Positions 2,973 to 14,650 of a DNA stretch of 64,000 bases are shown here, piece after piece; position 1 is the first letter of the stretch, and each line of letters starts with the position of its first letter. A program made the position numbers and the translations under genes. The notes under the pieces were generated by a model, which saw only the letters and a program-made list of their open reading frames with translations, was not told the DNA's origin and did not search any database. The stretch is taken from assembly GCA_963755715.1 (NCBI GenBank), contig CAVWLW010000064.1, positions 32,001 through 96,000 of the forward strand. Reading direction: 5' to 3'. This stretch comes from an uncultured delta proteobacterium (lineage in GTDB: Bacteria > Desulfobacterota > Binatia > UBA9968).

Positions 2973-3245
2973 TCATCCTCCGGGATCCGCCATTTCCGCC
3001 AGCGGCAGCACTTGATACGTCGAGAAATTGAAAACCGGCGACATCGCGAGCAACCGATCCAACTCTTCGTTCGACTCGACATTGTAGATCCAGGCGCCGC
3101 CGTGACTGCCGACGACGTGATAGCGGCACTCGAGCTTGCCTTCGGCTTCAAGCTTCTTGCCGTACTTGGATTGATCCATGACCGCGGCCATCATTTGCGG
3201 ACTGATTCGGCTCACTTCCAGATGCCAGAGCACGAGAAACTTCAT
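2973..3245 (-). CDS. Muconolactone delta-isomerase-like (dimeric alpha/beta barrel) small protein
   Basis: 90 aa, MKFLV...GKL...YHVVG...IYNVESNEELDRLLAMSP...YQVLPLA, resembling the MIase/DUF3303 pattern. Tightly packed between hypC and hypF. Confidence 0.6.
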   Translation of the reverse strand: MKFLVLWHLEVSRISPQMMAAVMDQSKYGKKLEAEGKLECRYHVVGSHGGAWIYNVESNEELDRLLAMSPVFNFSTYQVLPLAEMADPGG

Positions 3246-7356: not shown

Positions 7357-8244
7357 TCAAGACGATATCGCCGGAATGGCGATGCGAATTTCACTCTGCT
7401 GCGCGAGCAGCGGCAACGGCGCCATATGCAGATCGCCCCCGTCCGTGCATTGGCCGGCGCGCCGCACGTCGTAACGGCGCCCGCAGGTAGAACAGGTCAA
7501 AAAATTTCCCCGTAAGGAATTTTCGCGCAGCGCGACACCACAGGCTGGGCACGAATCCTGATACGCATAGAAAGTCTCGCCTACCCTGCAAACAAGGACG
7601 TTCATCCCGCCCAGTGCAGTGGCAGCGAGATTGCTATGAGCGAACTCAGGCAACTGGCCGAGCGCATGCCATTCTCCCGACGGAACACGACCTTCTTCCG
7701 TCTGCGCTGGATCGTTTTTAGAAATTTTATTTCCTGAAGAGGCGGCCGGCGCGACGTCGGTCGCGCCCTCGACTTCGATGCGTGCCACCTCGGGCGCGGC
7801 TTCTTCGATCGCCTTCTCGACCGCCAGCTTCATGGTGATCGTCGAAGATGGACAACCGTGGCAGCTTCCCTCCAAACGCAAATAGGCGACGCCATCGGCG
7901 ACGCGCACGAGCTTGACATCCCCGCCGTGCGAGCCCAGATAGGGACGGACGCGATCGAGGGCGCGCAGGATTCTCGTCTTCACATCCAGTGGATGCAAGT
8001 TGTGGAGCACCAGCAGGCTGCCCACGAGGTCATCTGAGCCGAGCCGATCCATAATTTCATCGGATCGGCCCGCTGCATCGACGATGCGCAGGACGCGGTC
8101 GAGCGCTCCGCCATATAATTCCATGAGCAGCCTAACCAACTCTTCGGCCCTTTCGCGCATGCGCGGATCCGCGACCACAGCAAATTCCTCGAGCAACCCA
8201 TCGATACGCTCGCCCACCGCGCGCAGATCCTTGGCCTTCGTCAT
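7357..8244 (-). CDS. NifU/NfuA-like Fe-S scaffold fused to a Rieske-like domain
   Basis: VRPYLGSHGGDV...GSCHGCPSS NifU motif and C-terminal CPAC...CSTC. Start moved to ATG 8244 because the longer ORF overlaps hhyL. Confidence 0.85.
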   Translation of the reverse strand: MTKAKDLRAVGERIDGLLEEFAVVADPRMRERAEELVRLLMELYGGALDRVLRIVDAAGRSDEIMDRLGSDDLVGSLLVLHNLHPLDVKTRILRALDRVRPYLGSHGGDVKLVRVADGVAYLRLEGSCHGCPSSTITMKLAVEKAIEEAAPEVARIEVEGATDVAPAASSGNKISKNDPAQTEEGRVPSGEWHALGQLPEFAHSNLAATALGGMNVLVCRVGETFYAYQDSCPACGVALRENSLRGNFLTCSTCGRRYDVRRAGQCTDGGDLHMAPLPLLAQQSEIRIAIPAISS

Positions 8245-8296
8245 TGGCGTGCCCTCGTAATGATTGCTGGTATCGGCCATCGACAGATGCCTTTGC

Positions 8297-10069
8297 TCAT
8301 CCCACTTGGTTGAGCAGCGTCGGCGAATGGCGTTTTTCCAGGACTTTGCCGTTGCCGAGATACATGTGAACGCCGCACGGCAGGCACGGATCGAAACTGC
8401 GCACGGTGCGCATGATATCGATGCCTTTGAATTTGTCTCCGGGTCCATTCTCTTCGAAAATCGGCGAGCCCTGCACCGCGTCTTCGTAAGGCCCGGGCGT
8501 GCCGTAGATGTCGCGCGGATTGCCGTTCCACGGCGTCGGCGGATAGGGGTGATAGTTGGCGATCTTACCGTCACGAATCACCATGTGATGGGAAAGCACG
8601 CCGCGCACCGCTTCGGTGAAGCCGCAGCCGATGGCATCTTTGGGAACCTTGAACGGCTCCCAGGTCTTGGTGTGTCCGGCGCGCACCTCTTTCAGTGCCT
8701 GTTCGACAAAATGCAGCGCCGCAGCGGCTGCGTAAGCTTGGAAATAGGTGCGCGCCCGGTCGCGCTCGATGGTATTGCTCCACTTGGGAATCTTCCATTC
8801 GAAACTGACCTCAGGCTTGGTCGCGGTCTTGGGCAGATTGAAGATCACGCTGGTCCCGGTCGCCTTCACGTAGCCGATATCAACCAGTCCGGCCAGCGCG
8901 GTGACCCACAAACGGGCGAGCGGTCCGCCGCCGGTATCGAGCGCGAGATGATCCTTGCCGTCGTACCAACGCGGCGACATCACCCAACTATACTTGTCGT
9001 CAAAGTCTCGTTTCTGCGGTTTTGGAATCGTGTGTTGATTCCAAGGGTGGTGCTCGTCCACCGGATTTCCTAGGGGATCGTTTTTGACGAATATTTCTTT
9101 GCCTTCCCAATTGTCGTAGTACGAATGGCCGAGCAGTATGCGGATACCGAGATTGATCTTGACCAGATCGGTGGTGAGCAGTTTGCCGTCGACCACCACC
9201 CCCGGGGTGACAAACATCTTGCGTCCCCAATCGGTCATATCGCGATAGTTGAAATTGCAATACTCCGGATCTTGCAAACTTCCCCAACAACCGAGCAGAA
9301 CCCGGCGCTCGCCGACTTTTTCGTATCCGGGCATGGCTTCGTAGAAGAAATCGAAAAGATCGTCATGCATCGGCACGACGCGCTTCATGAATTCTACGTA
9401 CCGCATCAAGCGCGTCAGATAGTCCGTGAACAACTGGATCGTCGCAACCGTGCCCACGCCGCCGGGATAGAGCGTCGACGGATGGACATGGCGCCCTTCC
9501 ATCAAACAAAACATTTCGCGGGTCATGCGGCTCATCTGCAGCGCTTCGCGGTAGAATTCGCCTTCCAACGGATTGAGCGACTTCATGATATCGCCGATGG
9601 TGCGATAACCATGGGCGCTCGCATGCGCGGCCTCGGTCTTGGCGGCCTTCTCCCAAACACCAGGATTGGTCTCGCGCACCATCCGTTCGCAGAAATCCAC
9701 GCCGACGAGGTTTTCCTGGAAGATGTTATGATCGAACATATATTCCGCCGCCTCGCCCAAGTTGACGATCCACTCGCCGAGATGCGGCGGCCTGACGCCA
9801 TAGGCCATATTCTGGGTATAGCAAGAGCAGGTGGCGTGATTATCGCCGCAGATGCCGCAGATCCGGCTGGTGATGAAATGCGCGTCGCGCGGATCCTTGC
9901 CTTTCATGAAAATGCTGTAGCCGCGAAAGATCGATGAAGTGCTGTGGCACTCGGCGACCGTGCGTTTGCCGAAGTCGATCTTGGTGTAAATACCCAGGCT
10001 GCCGACGATCCGAGTGATCGGATCCCACGCCATCTCAACGAGGTTGGAATTGGTTTGCGCCGTGGCCAT
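8297..10069 (-). CDS. hhyL: Group 1h [NiFe]-hydrogenase large subunit
   Basis: L1 TSRICGICGDNH and L2 SFDPCLPCGVH match the group 1h signatures. A cleavable C-terminal extension is present. Confidence 0.96.
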   Translation of the reverse strand: MATAQTNSNLVEMAWDPITRIVGSLGIYTKIDFGKRTVAECHSTSSIFRGYSIFMKGKDPRDAHFITSRICGICGDNHATCSCYTQNMAYGVRPPHLGEWIVNLGEAAEYMFDHNIFQENLVGVDFCERMVRETNPGVWEKAAKTEAAHASAHGYRTIGDIMKSLNPLEGEFYREALQMSRMTREMFCLMEGRHVHPSTLYPGGVGTVATIQLFTDYLTRLMRYVEFMKRVVPMHDDLFDFFYEAMPGYEKVGERRVLLGCWGSLQDPEYCNFNYRDMTDWGRKMFVTPGVVVDGKLLTTDLVKINLGIRILLGHSYYDNWEGKEIFVKNDPLGNPVDEHHPWNQHTIPKPQKRDFDDKYSWVMSPRWYDGKDHLALDTGGGPLARLWVTALAGLVDIGYVKATGTSVIFNLPKTATKPEVSFEWKIPKWSNTIERDRARTYFQAYAAAAALHFVEQALKEVRAGHTKTWEPFKVPKDAIGCGFTEAVRGVLSHHMVIRDGKIANYHPYPPTPWNGNPRDIYGTPGPYEDAVQGSPIFEENGPGDKFKGIDIMRTVRSFDPCLPCGVHMYLGNGKVLEKRHSPTLLNQVG

Positions 10070-10147: not shown

Positions 10148-11212
10148 CTACCATGGTTTTCGGTAACCCGTCGTCAGATCTTCTCCGCGGTGGCGCCACT
10201 TGGGTTCCTTGTCGAGGGTCCTCTCCGTGATGCCGCGCAAATTTCGGACAAGCTTTCCGTAGACTCCGCTGATTCCTGCGGACACTTTGCTGCCCGGCGG
10301 TTCATCCATGAAAGGCATGAACTTGTCCGGAAAGCCGGGCATCGTGCAGCCGATGCAAATACCGCCGACGTTCGGGCAACCGCCGATTCCGGCCATCCAG
10401 CCGCGCTTGGGCACATTGCATTTGACCACCGGTCCCCAGCAGCCGATTTTTACCAGGCATTTTGGCGAGCCATATTCAGTGGTGAAATCGCCTTGTTCAT
10501 AATATCCCGCGCGATCGCAGCCCTCGTGCACGGTCTGGCCGAAAAGCCATTTGGGTCGCAGATTTTCGTCGAGCGGGATCATCGGCGCCTGGCCGGTCGC
10601 CTGGTACAGCAGATAAAGAATCGTCTCCGACAAATTGTCGGGTTGGATCGGGCAGCCGGGCACGCAAACGATGGGAATGCCGGCGCGCGACTTCCAGTTC
10701 CAGCCCAAATAATCCGGCACGCCCATGGCGCCCGTCGGGTTGCCGGCCATGGCGTGGATGCCGCCATAGGTTGCGCAGGTTCCCACGGCGAGGACCGCCA
10801 GCGCCTTTGGCGTCAAGCGGTCGAGCCACTCACTGGTCGTCATCGGCTGGCCGGTTTCAAAATTGTTTCCGAAGCCGCACCAATAGCCTTCTTTCTTGAT
10901 GGCTTCGTTCGGAATCGATCCTTCCACGACGAGAACGAAGGGATCGAGCTCACCCTTTTCAGCTTTGTAGAACCACTTGATAAAGGTGTCGGCGCCGGGC
11001 TCGCCCATGCCTCCCGGGCCGCATTCAAAATCGATCAGCGGCCAATGCACGGCAACCTTCGGTAGACCCGGCAGAGCGCCGAGGACGATCTCCTCGATGC
11101 TCGGTTGCATGGCGGCGGTGAGCGCCACCGAGTCGCCATCGCAGCTCAAGCCGGCGTTGATCCACAACACATGAACTAAAGCATCTTCAGGTTTTGTCGC
11201 GGCCATGGGCAT
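10148..11212 (-). CDS. hhyS: Group 1h [NiFe]-hydrogenase small subunit
   Basis: GLSCDGDS (Cys/Asp proximal cluster), GTCATYGG, PGCP, HEGC, GGICIGCTMPGFPD. No Tat signal. RBS AAGGAGG. Confidence 0.95.
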   Translation of the reverse strand: MPMAATKPEDALVHVLWINAGLSCDGDSVALTAAMQPSIEEIVLGALPGLPKVAVHWPLIDFECGPGGMGEPGADTFIKWFYKAEKGELDPFVLVVEGSIPNEAIKKEGYWCGFGNNFETGQPMTTSEWLDRLTPKALAVLAVGTCATYGGIHAMAGNPTGAMGVPDYLGWNWKSRAGIPIVCVPGCPIQPDNLSETILYLLYQATGQAPMIPLDENLRPKWLFGQTVHEGCDRAGYYEQGDFTTEYGSPKCLVKIGCWGPVVKCNVPKRGWMAGIGGCPNVGGICIGCTMPGFPDKFMPFMDEPPGSKVSAGISGVYGKLVRNLRGITERTLDKEPKWRHRGEDLTTGYRKPW

Positions 11213-11350
11213 CGACCTCCTTATTTTCGTGAATGATCCGTCTGCCCCTCGACTCTCCAAACCGGGCAGAGATCAGCGAAATTCGTTTCTGCCAAGGTGA
11301 ATAGTCGAGACCAGGCGCACCGGCAATACGGAGTACGTCCGTTTCTTCTA

Positions 11351-11388
11351 TGAGAGATTAGCCGACTGTGGCCTAGGGGATTCCCCTA
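11351..11388 (-). promoter_or_regulatory. Candidate response-regulator operator upstream of hhySL
   Basis: Palindrome TAGGGGA-T-TCCCCTA at 11374-11388 and a degenerate copy at 11351-11365. A weak TTGCCG-17nt-TATTCA promoter lies at 11326-11298 on the minus strand. Confidence 0.45.
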
Positions 11389-11479: not shown

Positions 11480-12163
11480 TTACGTGGATTTTTCCCGCTG
11501 CAGCCATTGAATTGCGTGCTGCACAAGCTCACTGGCGTCGCTCAGCGTCATCTTTTCTTTGATGTGTTCGCGGTACGACTCGACAGTCTTTACGCTCAAG
11601 CGCAGCTCCTCAGCGATGCGCCGAGTCCCATGACCCTGACCGATCAGTCGAAAGACTTCCAGTTCGCGGTCACTGAGCCGATCGATGGAAAATTTCTGCG
11701 CTGTACCCGGCGCGCCGACGAATTGCTGCAGCATCTTGTTGGCCATCCGCTTACTAAGATAGATCTCCCCGCTCAAGACTCGGCGCAGCGCGAGCAGCAC
11801 ATTCTCGGTGGCTTCTTGTTTCATGATGAAGCCGCGGGCGCCGGCCCGTAGCGCCCGCGGCGCATAGATCGATTCATCGTGGATGGAAAGAACTAAAACC
11901 GGCAAGGCCGGCATGCGGATCTTGAGGTTCTTGATCAATTCGATACCATCGGCGCCCTTCAACGAAATATCGGCAAGGGCGATGTCAGGTTTCAGCGTTT
12001 GCATGGCTTTGAGCGCTTCGTAGATATCTTCCGCGGTGCCGCAAACGGTCAGATCCGGCTCGCGGTTGATCAGCTGCGTGAGACCTTCTCGCACAATCGG
12101 ATGGTCGTCGATGACGAAGACCGTGCGCTTGCTCTTCACGGAAAGTTTTCGCTCAGCAGCCAA
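11480..12163 (-). CDS. NarL/FixJ-family response regulator (REC + LuxR HTH)
   Basis: IDDHPIVREGL, ADISL phosphoacceptor Asp, LSDRELEVFRLIGQG...SVKTVESYREHIKEK. Confidence 0.95.
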   Translation of the reverse strand: MAAERKLSVKSKRTVFVIDDHPIVREGLTQLINREPDLTVCGTAEDIYEALKAMQTLKPDIALADISLKGADGIELIKNLKIRMPALPVLVLSIHDESIYAPRALRAGARGFIMKQEATENVLLALRRVLSGEIYLSKRMANKMLQQFVGAPGTAQKFSIDRLSDRELEVFRLIGQGHGTRRIAEELRLSVKTVESYREHIKEKMTLSDASELVQHAIQWLQREKST

Positions 12164-12174
12164 ATCACCCTCTT

Positions 12175-13566
12175 TTACTCGTTACCGTTTAGAGGAAGCA
12201 CGCAAGTAACCATCGTTCCGCCGTTCGGATTCTTCTGAATCTTTAGCGATGCGCCTATCATGTTGGCGCGGTAATTCATAATGCGTAGCCCCATACCTTC
12301 TTTGTGGTCAGGCACATCCGGAAAACCCACTCCGTCGTCATAGATGCTTAGGGCAACAGTACCGCCCCGGTGACTCAGATCAATAACGACCTGTCGGGAG
12401 TGACCGTGCTTGACGGCATTCGTCACCGCCTCTTGAGCGATTCGATACAGGTGCGTGGCTAAATCGATGTCGCGAATCGGGATGGCATCTTCATCGCGAA
12501 AAAGACACGAAACGTTGAACAATTCTTCGACGTCGGATGCCAGGTGTCGAAGCGCGGAGACAAACCCTTGGGATCCCGATGGCACCGGGAGAAGTCCGCG
12601 CGCGAGTTCGCGGGTCTGGTTGATCGCTTCATTGACGAGCCGAGCAATCTTAGCCGCGTCGTTGGCCTCTGCGGACAACTTCTCTGTAAGCTTGTCTGCC
12701 AAAACCTTGCTCAGGAAAGCAACGCCGGTGAGGTGCTGTCCCAATCCGTCGTGCAAATCCTGCGCAATGCGTCTTTTTTCCCGCTCGCTGATCTCGAGAA
12801 TGGATTTCTCCAAACGCTTGCGCTCAATCATTTCACTTTTCAGGATATCGTTGGCGATGCCCAGTTCGACGGTTCGCGCTTGCACGCGTATTTCCAACTC
12901 GTGTCGCGCCCCCAGTAGATCTTCCTGCACGCGCTTGCGCTCGCCAATCTCCAACTGCAGCATCTTATTGGTCAAAGCGAGTTCCTTGGTCCGCTCCTCA
13001 ACTCGCTTTTCCAAGTCGGCGCGACTGTTTTGCAGCTCCTCTTCGGCCTTTTTGAGCTCGGTGATATCGAAAGCTATGCCGTGAACGAACCAGGGATGGC
13101 CGTCTTCGGCGCGCACCATCTTCACTTCGCAATGAAACCAGACCGTGTGCCCGTCGCGGGCTAGGATCCGATAGATAGAGCGCAGCGGCTCGCCCGACAA
13201 AACCATCTGCGCGGTTTCGATATTCCACCGCTCTTTGTCACCGGGATGGATTTGGCGATACCAGCGGATGGGATCATCGAGCCACTCGGCCTGGGAGAAC
13301 CCCAAGGCGGCTTCGATGTGCGGGCTAACGTAAGCTTCGCTGATGCCTCGATCGAGAAAAATCATGAACACGACCGCCGGCACCTGCTCGACGAGCGTCC
13401 TATACCGCGCCTCGACGTCCGGCAGTCGCCGATCGTCGCCATTGTCCGGCTCACTGCCGACGGTGGATGACTTGCCATTGGCCTCGAAAAAAACGCTAGC
13501 CAGTTCCTGGATAACCCTTTCCGCGTCACTCAGACTGATTGACTTTTCGTCGCCGGCTTCGATCAC
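12175..13566 (-). CDS. Soluble PAS-domain sensor histidine kinase (HisKA_3 type)
   Basis: PAS (YVSP...IHPGD...YRI..RDG..W), H-box RIAQDLHDGLGQ, N-box QEAVTNAVKHG, DDGVG and GMGL boxes. No transmembrane segment. Confidence 0.93.
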   Translation of the reverse strand: MIEAGDEKSISLSDAERVIQELASVFFEANGKSSTVGSEPDNGDDRRLPDVEARYRTLVEQVPAVVFMIFLDRGISEAYVSPHIEAALGFSQAEWLDDPIRWYRQIHPGDKERWNIETAQMVLSGEPLRSIYRILARDGHTVWFHCEVKMVRAEDGHPWFVHGIAFDITELKKAEEELQNSRADLEKRVEERTKELALTNKMLQLEIGERKRVQEDLLGARHELEIRVQARTVELGIANDILKSEMIERKRLEKSILEISEREKRRIAQDLHDGLGQHLTGVAFLSKVLADKLTEKLSAEANDAAKIARLVNEAINQTRELARGLLPVPSGSQGFVSALRHLASDVEELFNVSCLFRDEDAIPIRDIDLATHLYRIAQEAVTNAVKHGHSRQVVIDLSHRGGTVALSIYDDGVGFPDVPDHKEGMGLRIMNYRANMIGASLKIQKNPNGGTMVTCVLPLNGNE

Positions 13567-13615
13567 GTAACTTTGCCTTCGTTACCGTTTATTATTTCGC
13601 CGGCGGCTCGCCCGT

Positions 13616-14650
13616 TCAAGGTGTTGCTTTGCCGCGCCGGTCGGGCTCTTTGTTGAGTGAAGCTTGCGTGAAGCTGCGCAGCGCGCGAATGGTTTTCCCG
13701 TAGGTCATTACGGCGGTGGTCGAGAGAATCGAGCCCGGAGGTTGATCCATGAACGGCATGAACTTGTCCGGAAATCCCGGCATCGTGCAGCCGATACAAA
13801 TGCCGCCCACGCTCGGGCAGCCGCCCACGCCATTTACCCAACCGCGTTTTCCGACGTTGCACTGCACGACCGGTCCCCAACAGCCGAGCTTTACGATGCA
13901 CTGGTTCGAACCGTGTTCACCGGCGAACTCCCCCTGTTCATAATAACCGCCGCGATTGCATCCTTCGTGAACCGTTTGGCCAAATAGCCATGTGGGTCGT
14001 AACGCGTCGTCGAGAGGAATCATCGGCGCGCTGCCGGCTGCTTGATATAAGAGGTAGAGCAAAGTTTCCATAAAATTGTCCGGAAGAACCGGACAGCCAG
14101 GCACACAAACGATCGGAATGTCAGCCGCGGATTTCCATTGCCAACCCAAGTAATCAGCCAGCCCCATGGCACCCGTCGGATTCCCTTCCATCGCATGGAT
14201 ACCGCCATAGGTAGCGCATGTCCCCGCCGCAATCACCGCCCAGGCATTGGGCGCGAGCCGATTAATCCACTCACAAGTCGTGAGAGGTTGCCCAGTAACT
14301 TTGTCGGTTCCTAGTGCCGCCCAATAACCCTCGTCCTTGTTCTTTTCGTTGGGGATTGATCCCTCAACGACGAGAATGAAAGGCGCGAGATTGCCTTCGG
14401 CGGCGCGGTGAAACGGTTGCAAGAAATCATCTCCGTTTTCATAGGAGAGAAAGGGATTATGAAAATTGACTTTGGGAATACCGGGAAGAGCTCCGAGCAA
14501 AATATCTTCAAGACTCGGTTGCGTTGCCGCCGTGATGGCGATGGTATCTCCGTCGCACCCGAGACCGGCCGTGATCCAGAGAATATCGATCTCCCGGATA
14601 GATAGAGACGCTATAGATGGGATAGTATTTTTTGCGGCAAGATTCTCCAT
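13616..14650 (-). CDS. Second, divergent group 1h-type [NiFe]-hydrogenase small subunit (no adjacent large subunit)
   Basis: GLGCDGDT, GTCATYGG, PGCP, HEGC, CIVKLGCWGP, GGICIGCTMPGFPD. Aligns with HhyS over its length but has a shorter C-terminal tail. Confidence 0.93.
   Translation of the reverse strand: MENLAAKNTIPSIASLSIREIDILWITAGLGCDGDTIAITAATQPSLEDILLGALPGIPKVNFHNPFLSYENGDDFLQPFHRAAEGNLAPFILVVEGSIPNEKNKDEGYWAALGTDKVTGQPLTTCEWINRLAPNAWAVIAAGTCATYGGIHAMEGNPTGAMGLADYLGWQWKSAADIPIVCVPGCPVLPDNFMETLLYLLYQAAGSAPMIPLDDALRPTWLFGQTVHEGCNRGGYYEQGEFAGEHGSNQCIVKLGCWGPVVQCNVGKRGWVNGVGGCPSVGGICIGCTMPGFPDKFMPFMDQPPGSILSTTAVMTYGKTIRALRSFTQASLNKEPDRRGKATP

Follow-up and report, generated by a model that had tools for sequence, protein, structure and literature searches.

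Among NiFe hydrogenases, the sensory classes listed in HydDB are groups 2b and 2c (PMC5037454), and the group 2b system HoxBC-HoxJ-HoxA of Cupriavidus necator sets a soluble Fe-S subunit, a PAS-headed kinase and a response regulator beside hydrogenase genes (PMC10073562). How the group 1h hydrogenase Hhy is induced is still listed as open in a 2026 paper, in which the M. smegmatis enzyme is under the oxygen/redox system DosST/DosR (PMC13098282). A locus of Hox-like layout is present in a 64,000-nucleotide stretch of DNA (the window) from an uncultured delta proteobacterium of the Binatia (GCA_963755715.1, contig CAVWLW010000064.1, positions 32,001 to 96,000). Here a second group 1h small subunit gene, hhyS2, is followed by genes for a soluble histidine kinase and a NarL/LuxR-type response regulator, and then by hhyS and hhyL, the genes of the hydrogenase proper. 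HhyS2 is an intact Fe-S subunit under purifying selection and belongs to a distinct lineage. On balance we favor a scheme in which it borrows HhyL to form a regulatory hydrogenase that would signal through the PAS1 domain of the kinase to a NarL-type activator of hhySL.

The likeness to the Hox system is one of arrangement. HhyS2 is 34% identical to HoxB, derives from group 1h and lies outside the HoxB/HupU class; the window kinase gives no match to HoxJ at E<=10; and the regulator, which is NarL-type and not NtrC/sigma-54, shares only its REC domain with HoxA. HoxC ends at DPCMVCTVH without a C-terminal extension, whereas HhyS2-lineage large subunits keep the extension and the window has no dedicated large subunit. 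An amphipathic-looking helix precedes the PAS domain at the N-terminus of HoxJ and of the window kinase alike, a resemblance that is analogy only. The HhyS2 system would thus work like HoxBC-HoxJ-HoxA and falls outside it in every sequence comparison made, as expected under the convergence proposed in an earlier sequence-only reading of this DNA. The closest solved relative of HhyS2 is HofK from HofKG of C. necator (PDB 5AA5; E 1.3e-169, ~71% identity), which has the same Cys3-Asp proximal motif and ligand set. Unlike hhyS2, the HofK gene lies directly before that of its large subunit, with neither a kinase nor a second small subunit within 5 kb, and the protein ends in a VLTTGY tail.

On the output side the nearest likeness is to the NarX/NarL class including DosST/DosR, in which a HisKA_3 kinase and a REC-LuxR regulator control a group 1h hydrogenase (PMC13098282). 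The window regulator has the REC-GerE architecture with acidic pocket, Asp and Lys, and the H, N and G boxes of the kinase are intact, as expected of this class; no match attains the cut-off of a curated family. DosS takes its input through GAF/heme, whereas the input of the window kinase is PAS1 with a hydrogenase subunit, and the window regulator would have a dedicated regulon with a single site in the assembly and not a global one.

The extra hhyS itself is already in print. Giguere (2021; PMC8027828) reported an additional hhyS ~3,600 bp upstream of the structural genes both in Acidobacteriaceae bacterium KBS 83 and in Edaphobacter aggregans, as in Pyrinomonas methylaliphatogenes. This is the spacing found in the GTDB loci described below, and from spacing and taxa the published gene very probably belongs to the same module as that of the window. 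The accessible main text of that paper has no occurrence of “kinase” or “regulat” and gives neither a function nor an operator, although its supplement SI-2 may describe the neighboring genes. It is the only paper found to mention the extra hhyS, few subscription papers being within reach of the search, and the accessible literature yielded no description of the operator, of forms with their own large subunit or of a graft onto actinobacterial-type hhySL.

HhyS2 is a distinct small-subunit lineage

HhyS2 is a group 1h small subunit by descent. It has the Cys3-Asp proximal site and three sets of Fe-S ligands, with residues kept at all 12 positions (C32, D35, C145, C186; H228, C231, C251, C257; C264, C278, C285, C288); from alignment with standard hydrogenases we take these to hold three Fe-S clusters. 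HhyS2 has neither a twin-arginine (Tat) motif nor a membrane segment; hydropathy averaged over 19 residues does not exceed 1.41 in this protein, the kinase, the regulator or HhyS. It departs from other group 1h small subunits in two respects: its gene is not directly before that of a cognate large subunit, and the HxRxELTTGY tail is replaced by KEPDRRGKATP (compared with KEPKWRHRGEDLTTGYRKPW in HhyS). The short tail is typical and not universal, as three kinase-linked copies (L104, L177, L183) keep an ELT[TS]GY-like tail. The sequence-only reading, which had described a complete second HhyS with all its ligands, no Tat signal and a shortened tail, is borne out on each of these points. Identity is 65% to the neighboring HhyS and 76-88% to the 120 best database matches.

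The phylogeny called for in that reading was built as a quick IQ-TREE analysis of 82 rows. The 39 copies linked to PAS1 fall in a single branch together with a divergently arranged copy and a subunit from Pirellulaceae (SH-like approximate likelihood ratio test, SH-aLRT, 95). HhyS2 is therefore a distinct lineage and not a local duplicate. In a 49-row tree under a simpler model the branch has support of 97 but takes in one long-branch Streptantibioticus subunit, which falls outside it in the 82-row tree. The small and large subunits of this pSCAT plasmid hydrogenase (L198) both group with the pair of genome G405 (L220) and represent either a long-branch artefact or a sensor-lineage relative.

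The GTDB counts given here refer to the best 72 loci of 631 confirmed candidates, and the genome surveys covered phyla other than Actinomycetota and Chloroflexota. The next gene after a full-length small subunit in these loci encodes a kinase in 62 cases, hhyL in 53 and something else in three. Acidobacteriota supply most of the hosts, and Planctomycetota and Verrucomicrobiota one record each. The gene order of the window recurs in this set (45 of the 72 loci have both full-length small subunits), which makes the arrangement more than chance. Compared with two relatives (L099 and L101), HhyS2 differs at 12-16% of residues and at 50-65% of fourfold-degenerate sites, and comparison with nearest relatives indicates purifying selection on HhyS2, kinase and regulator alike. 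Across the 45 loci with both copies, conservation is lower in HhyS2 than in HhyS in all segments but one, the exception being residues 301-337 (0.90 in HhyS2 vs 0.73 in HhyS), which points to the C-terminal helix as the likely new contact. The proximal Asp ligand is changed to Glu (CDGE) in six HhyS2 proteins (L009, L037, L042, L044, L047, L059), five of them from Blastocatellia, and in none of 54 HhyS.

The PAS1 module and the candidate operator

PAS1 is present in 61 of the 62 kinases behind hhyS2 in the GTDB loci, the single miss being a frameshifted gene (L031). These kinases start with a helix of consensus AExxLxxLAxVF, a variable linker and a PAS_3 domain that is 51-76% identical to that of the window where complete; there follow 0-2 extra PAS or GAF domains and then one of two HisKA_3 types, HisKA (in some cases with REC) or HisKA_2. 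Since PAS1 stays with HhyS2 while the kinase cores vary, the constant partner of HhyS2 is the helix plus PAS1, not the HisKA_3 core or the NarL regulator. The linkage of hhyS2, kinase and regulator anticipated by the sequence-only reading is constant for the input module and variable for the kinase core and regulator. A reverse search gave the same association: of 80 PAS1 metagenome loci (including two near-copies of the window), 75 have a small subunit gene within 900 bases upstream, three end too early and two have none. In a sample of 301 Acidobacteriota genomes (300 drawn evenly plus the center genome, 11 candidates being scored in each), a group 1h small subunit is encoded by 14 and HhyS2 by nine, and PAS1 occurs in exactly those nine, scoring at least 219 bits where the next best score is 141; 10 of the 11 PAS1 copies lie behind hhyS2.

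HhyS2 and kinase also occur as one polypeptide. Two proteins from different sources (P0126 and P0175, 90% identical) join HhyS2, helix, PAS1 and HisKA_2, differing by indels only in the linker and bearing no sign of frameshift garbling. Four further HhyS2-PAS fusions (P0160, P0165, P0180, P0203) were dropped as artefacts garbled by frameshifts, as were many fusions of small and large subunits. Together these data make HhyS2 a likely input subunit of the kinase, acting on the helix and PAS1 and probably through residues 301-337.

What PAS1 itself might bind is less telling. Iron-sulfur (NreB), heme (FixL) and flavin (LOV/NifL) sensors have recognizable cofactor motifs, whereas PAS1 has no conserved multi-Cys or cofactor motif and a single Cys that is not universal. 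That residue, C146, is part of a His-Cys pair and is found in 58 of 60 sequences; it is Gly in the fusions and in forms with their own large subunit and is thus no universal ligand. A fold search gave generic matches only, the best being uncharacterized PAS domains at no more than 31% identity. Prediction of a 1:1 complex of HhyS2 with helix and PAS1 scored zero in both runs, a result that is used neither for nor against contact. In some genomes two PAS1 kinases coexist that lead to distinct outputs (L181 and L182 in G062; L036 and L206 in G063; L183 and L184 in G202), one of them leading to a REC-HD regulator.

The regulator can be connected to a candidate operator, a palindrome upstream of hhyS. 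It is the sole match in the 64-kb window at up to two mismatches (none in 100 shuffles) and the top site of the assembly, at 23.6 bits against 18.6 for the next. Allowing two mismatches within 400 bases upstream of hhyS, the consensus TMRGGGAWTCCCYKA is found in 86 of 88 loci with this regulator type, a count that is partly circular since the consensus was derived from the same related loci. Controls gave 13 of 1760 shuffles, two of 120 hhyS2 upstream regions and one of nine loci scored as having another regulator type; this last (L031) is a frameshifted member of the same type. The site is seen in two of 17 loci with no module in view, and both genomes have a PAS1 kinase and regulator elsewhere. 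It is perfect before the distant hhyS of G061, where the module is detached, departs from the consensus at 1-2 positions ahead of the second hhySL copies of G069 and G063, and shows 4-5 mismatches in all four genomes whose known module has another output. In the window the perfect site is retained even though it precedes a hydrogenase from another lineage.

Control of hhySL by the NarL-type regulator is, on this evidence, highly likely, and the two steps taken jointly, HhyS2 as kinase input and regulator on palindrome, are likely too. The position of the palindrome upstream of a weakly conserved TTG element suggests activation. A consensus promoter scan found nothing at the hhyS promoter and did not list the hexamer TTGCCG, a weak -35-like candidate. 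Autoregulation of hhyS2 finds no support, as just two of the 120 hhyS2 upstream regions have an operator-like site and one of these is the divergent locus L055. In related loci a second, weaker element (taGt..ttcCc) lies about two helical turns downstream of the palindrome and may be a low-affinity site; the match in the window (~11340-11370) is poor. Directly upstream of hhySL in two other genomes (L187:4622-6914 in G110 and L188:7647-9879 in G126) is a different PAS-PAS-HisKA_3 kinase with a NarL regulator and no hhyS2 or PAS1, a second candidate regulator of group 1h genes.

Large-subunit pairing and competing explanations

The assembly encodes two group 1h small subunits and one large subunit, so what does the second small subunit do? 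No second NiFe large subunit was found in the 93.6%-complete assembly, as the sequence-only reading had supposed from the locus, and according to Eichorst (2018) each strain has a single large subunit. In three genomes a subunit of the HhyS2 lineage is encoded together with an hhyL of its own and next to a PAS1 kinase, which indicates that subunits of this type are able to accept a large partner. In G672 the genes for small subunit, HhyL and a PAS1-HisKA kinase are consecutive, and hhySL is present separately on a different contig; G947 and G405 have the HhyS2-lineage gene immediately ahead of hhyL in a full maturation operon that ends in a PAS1-type HisKA_2 kinase, and this is the only group 1h pair found in each genome (hhyL of G947 lies in two frames in the assembly). 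Of 14 signature residues these proteins have five (G672), 12 (G947) and nine (G405), compared with 13 in the window HhyS2 and 0-3 in ordinary HhyS, and the G947 protein is 81% identical to that of the window. G671 has a subunit with six of the 14, an hhyL and a full tail; PAS1 was not found there. The C-terminal extension is present in the window HhyL and in own-large-subunit forms L215 and L220. The idea that loss of the tail means loss of HhyL binding was rejected, as three own-large-subunit forms have no tail and three orphans keep it. Among sites invariant in 69 large-subunit-paired subunits, window HhyS2 keeps 103 of 105 and the orphan median is the same, although these sites include fold and ligand residues and so do not isolate the interface. 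In the Acidobacteriota sample hhyL accompanies HhyS2 in nine of nine genomes, and of eight genomes with no hhyL inside the retrieved hhyS2 locus seven have one elsewhere.

The favored scheme runs as follows. HhyS2, lacking a large subunit of its own, would assemble with a small pool of ordinary HhyL. Oxidation of H2 at the NiFe site would reduce the HhyS2 clusters, whose redox state, as they have no normal electron outlet, is proposed to report H2 supply balanced against reoxidation. This state would set the activity of the kinase and hence phosphorylation of the regulator, which probably binds the palindrome and activates hhySL and the downstream maturation genes. That reduced HhyS2 turns the kinase on, and not off, is a guess with a slight lean. 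H2 as the signal and the physical contacts are inferred from the comparisons above. In growing cells of two acidobacteria hhyL transcript was measured and hhyS was undetected (PMC8027828); this fits a basal pool of spare HhyL and also a starvation signal.

Several observations weigh against this scheme. Residues 42-78, which presumably include large-subunit contacts as in standard hydrogenases, are the most relaxed part of orphan HhyS2 (-0.18), and G57W is found in 55 of 63 HhyS2, though not in the window copy. Window HhyS2 would also need to match an HhyL of actinobacterial type, the native HhyS of which is different at residues 64-71, and it has private changes at near-invariant sites (Y246H, N280S and loss of the Trp of KEPxWR). 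The breadth of the 105 invariant sites and the shared origin of operator consensus and counted loci count here too. A Verrucomicrobiota genome of unstated completeness (G067) has hhyS2-PAS1 while hhyL and hypD were not found; PAS1 kinases with no adjacent hhyS2 occur (L108, L157, G202:C15, G673); and before second or distant hhyS genes in G062 and G068 the palindrome appears only with three mismatches despite presence of the regulator. No experiment on the HhyS2-PAS1 module was found in the accessible literature. In strains with the extra hhyS the inducer of hhySL was carbon limitation, not H2, raising hhyL ~125-fold in KBS 83 and 3.5-fold in E. aggregans, and transcript of the hhyS homologue was detected in the former and not in the latter (PMC8027828).

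Some of these points would also be explained if orphan HhyS2 has lost its large subunit for good and binds the kinase alone, its clusters reading O2 or cytoplasmic redox during starvation and acting through the same regulator and operator, with H2 not the signal. Such a stand-alone Fe-S sensor, which the sequence-only reading had offered beside pairing with HhyL, would suit the fact that orphans are relaxed and have fixed changes at residues 36-39 and 50-71, the gene content of G067, the natural fusions to a kinase, induction by carbon limitation and the DosST/DosR control of M. smegmatis Hhy (PMC8027828; PMC13098282). We consider it unlikely, as subunits of the HhyS2 lineage that share most of the signature residues are paired with an hhyL of their own and nearly all paired-subunit invariant sites are kept. 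The co-occurrence with hhyL (nine of nine genomes, where 14 of 301 have any group 1h subunit, and seven of the eight above) also speaks against it, although regulation of hhySL alone would produce the same pattern; of the two options in the sequence-only reading, pairing with HhyL is thus the favored one. The pairing evidence also serves a feedback device in which HhyS2 binds HhyL and reports how much mature, nickel-loaded HhyL is present, or how electrons flow through mixed HhyS/HhyS2 dimers, so as to tune the output of subunit and maturation genes, and does not respond to H2 level. Group 1h enzymes are dimers of heterodimers (10.1101/2025.11.03.686391), and a pure H2 switch may be of limited value where atmospheric H2 is nearly constant. 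Against this, all electron-transfer ligands of HhyS2 are kept, G672 has a complete separate pair inside its signaling operon, and the existence of other outputs (an HD-domain regulator, hybrid kinases) suggests that general pathways receive an external signal; we regard feedback as rather improbable.

More doubtful still is that HhyS2 is an isoenzyme, an alternative small subunit for catalysis that shares a transcript with the kinase and nothing more, the kinase sensing a small ligand of its own via PAS1. The role of the HhyS2-lineage protein as the only group 1h small subunit found in G947 and G405, within a full maturation operon, would agree with this, as would the His-Cys pair of PAS1 and the PAS1 kinases that lack an adjacent hhyS2. 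Translational fusion of HhyS2 with a kinase, the persistence of PAS1 with HhyS2 while cores and regulators are swapped, and the Gly at position 146 in fusions and own-large-subunit forms do not. That the window hhyS2 is a decaying passenger, a duplicate with no current role, is very improbable: its private substitutions, the lack of a group 1h small subunit in same-genus genomes and the failure to find hypB in the assembly are outweighed by the low residue divergence relative to fourfold-degenerate sites, the intact frames and the perfect candidate operator.

If HhyS2 does borrow HhyL, a swap of subunits would have produced a sensory hydrogenase with no relation to HoxBC, and one that is a candidate component of low-H2 biosensors. 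The wider proposal, to which we give slightly less than an even chance, is that HhyS2-PAS1 is a second, independently evolved class of NiFe H2 sensor. Its starting point would have been an entire hydrogenase pair of group 1h descent next to a PAS kinase; the large subunit would then have been lost and HhyL borrowed by subunit exchange. The sensor would be portable into at least four kinase cores and would cross between phyla along with its regulator and operator. As its parent enzyme has high affinity, it may respond to H2 at close to atmospheric levels. The main atmospheric H2 sink includes soil bacteria with group 1h enzymes, and the module offers a candidate sensor, kinase, regulator and 15-bp operator for Hhy induction. 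It is found in eight of 13 unselected Acidobacteriota genomes with a group 1h small subunit and is probably present in cultured strains.

The window locus and other subunit fusions

The genes of the unit all lie on the minus strand in the order hhyS2, kinase, regulator, hhyS, hhyL (Table 1), with gaps of 49 bp, 11 bp and ~270 bp between the first four. Coordinates and Pfam domains uphold the tight three-gene unit directly upstream of hhySL that the sequence-only reading had delineated; of the findings that it had named as counting against it, neither of the two open to sequence comparison, want of kinase linkage elsewhere and a second large subunit in the genome, was made. Downstream of hhyL are, in order, a NifU-Rieske gene, DUF5947, DUF6084, a conserved hypothetical gene, a maturation protease and hypA, C, F, C, D and E. 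The assembly (7.4 Mb, 76 contigs) gave no tblastn match to hypB or a HoxN-type nickel transporter, which may reflect an assembly gap.

Table 1. Features of the hhyS2-hhySL locus in window coordinates.
Feature	Position	Strand	Remarks
hhyS2	13616-14650	-	344 aa; sensor-lineage paralogue of group 1h small subunit; Pfam Oxidored_q6 and NiFe_hyd_SSU_C
Soluble histidine kinase	12175-13566	-	463 aa; N-terminal helix, linker, PAS1, coiled coil, HisKA_3, HATPase_c
Kinase Pfam domains			PAS_3 78-165, HisKA_3 263-327, HATPase_c 370-460; H-box DLHDGLGQHL at 270
Amphipathic helix of kinase	13486-13533	-	Residues ~12-27; consensus AExxLxxLAxVF, conserved; part of the HhyS2-linked input module
PAS1 of kinase	13039-13419	-	Residues 50-176; PAS_3 domain tracking HhyS2 across kinase types
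NarL/LuxR-type response regulator	11480-12163	-	227 aa; REC 15-125, GerE 162-217
Palindrome TAGGGGATTCCCCTA	11374-11388	strand-neutral	Candidate operator; family consensus TMRGGGAWTCCCYKA
Possible -35-like hexamer TTGCCG	11321-11326	-	Weak; at about the offset of the TTG element in related loci
hhyS	10148-11209	-	Catalytic small subunit, actinobacterial-type; probable target gene
hhyL	8297-10069	-	Sole NiFe large subunit of assembly; probable target, proposed shared partner of HhyS2
NifU-Rieske gene	7357-8296	-	Follows hhyL
Muconolactone isomerase-family gene	2973-3245	-	90 aa; between hypC and hypF

Sensor and enzyme have different histories. In FastTree and IQ-TREE analyses of large and small subunits, respectively, window hhyL (support 96 and 98) and hhyS (99 and 98) group with Mycobacterium and Streptomyces plasmid enzymes, HhyS2 being of another lineage, so the two were brought together in the window. 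The host lies outside the lineage of its hhyS2, and the module sits on an actinobacterial-type hhySL. Distribution of the group 1h small subunit is patchy, with none in 30 same-genus genomes and one in 300 others of the phylum. In four metatranscriptome contig sets from soil or rhizosphere, hhyS2, kinase and regulator are covered by short, near-identical fragments at a depth of 2-6, among hydrogenase reads of other organisms; as these may be DNA, no claim of expression is made for the three genes.

The gene after hhyL encodes NifU as well as Rieske domains; in many acidobacterial loci it is shorter and has NifU alone. Other group 1h-like small subunits are fused to GGDEF (one), UTRA (five), CHAT (two separate proteins) or PAS-PAS-HisKA (one, from Thermoleophilaceae), as in P0219, P0261, P0133, P0141 and P0139; where placed they fall outside the HhyS2 lineage and may be independent recruitments into signaling, or artefacts. 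A recurring HhyS-like family of 500-540 aa (P0250, P0220, P0223, P0259, P0266 and relatives, some from Actinomycetota) has an extra C-terminal domain of ~170 aa with no Pfam match.

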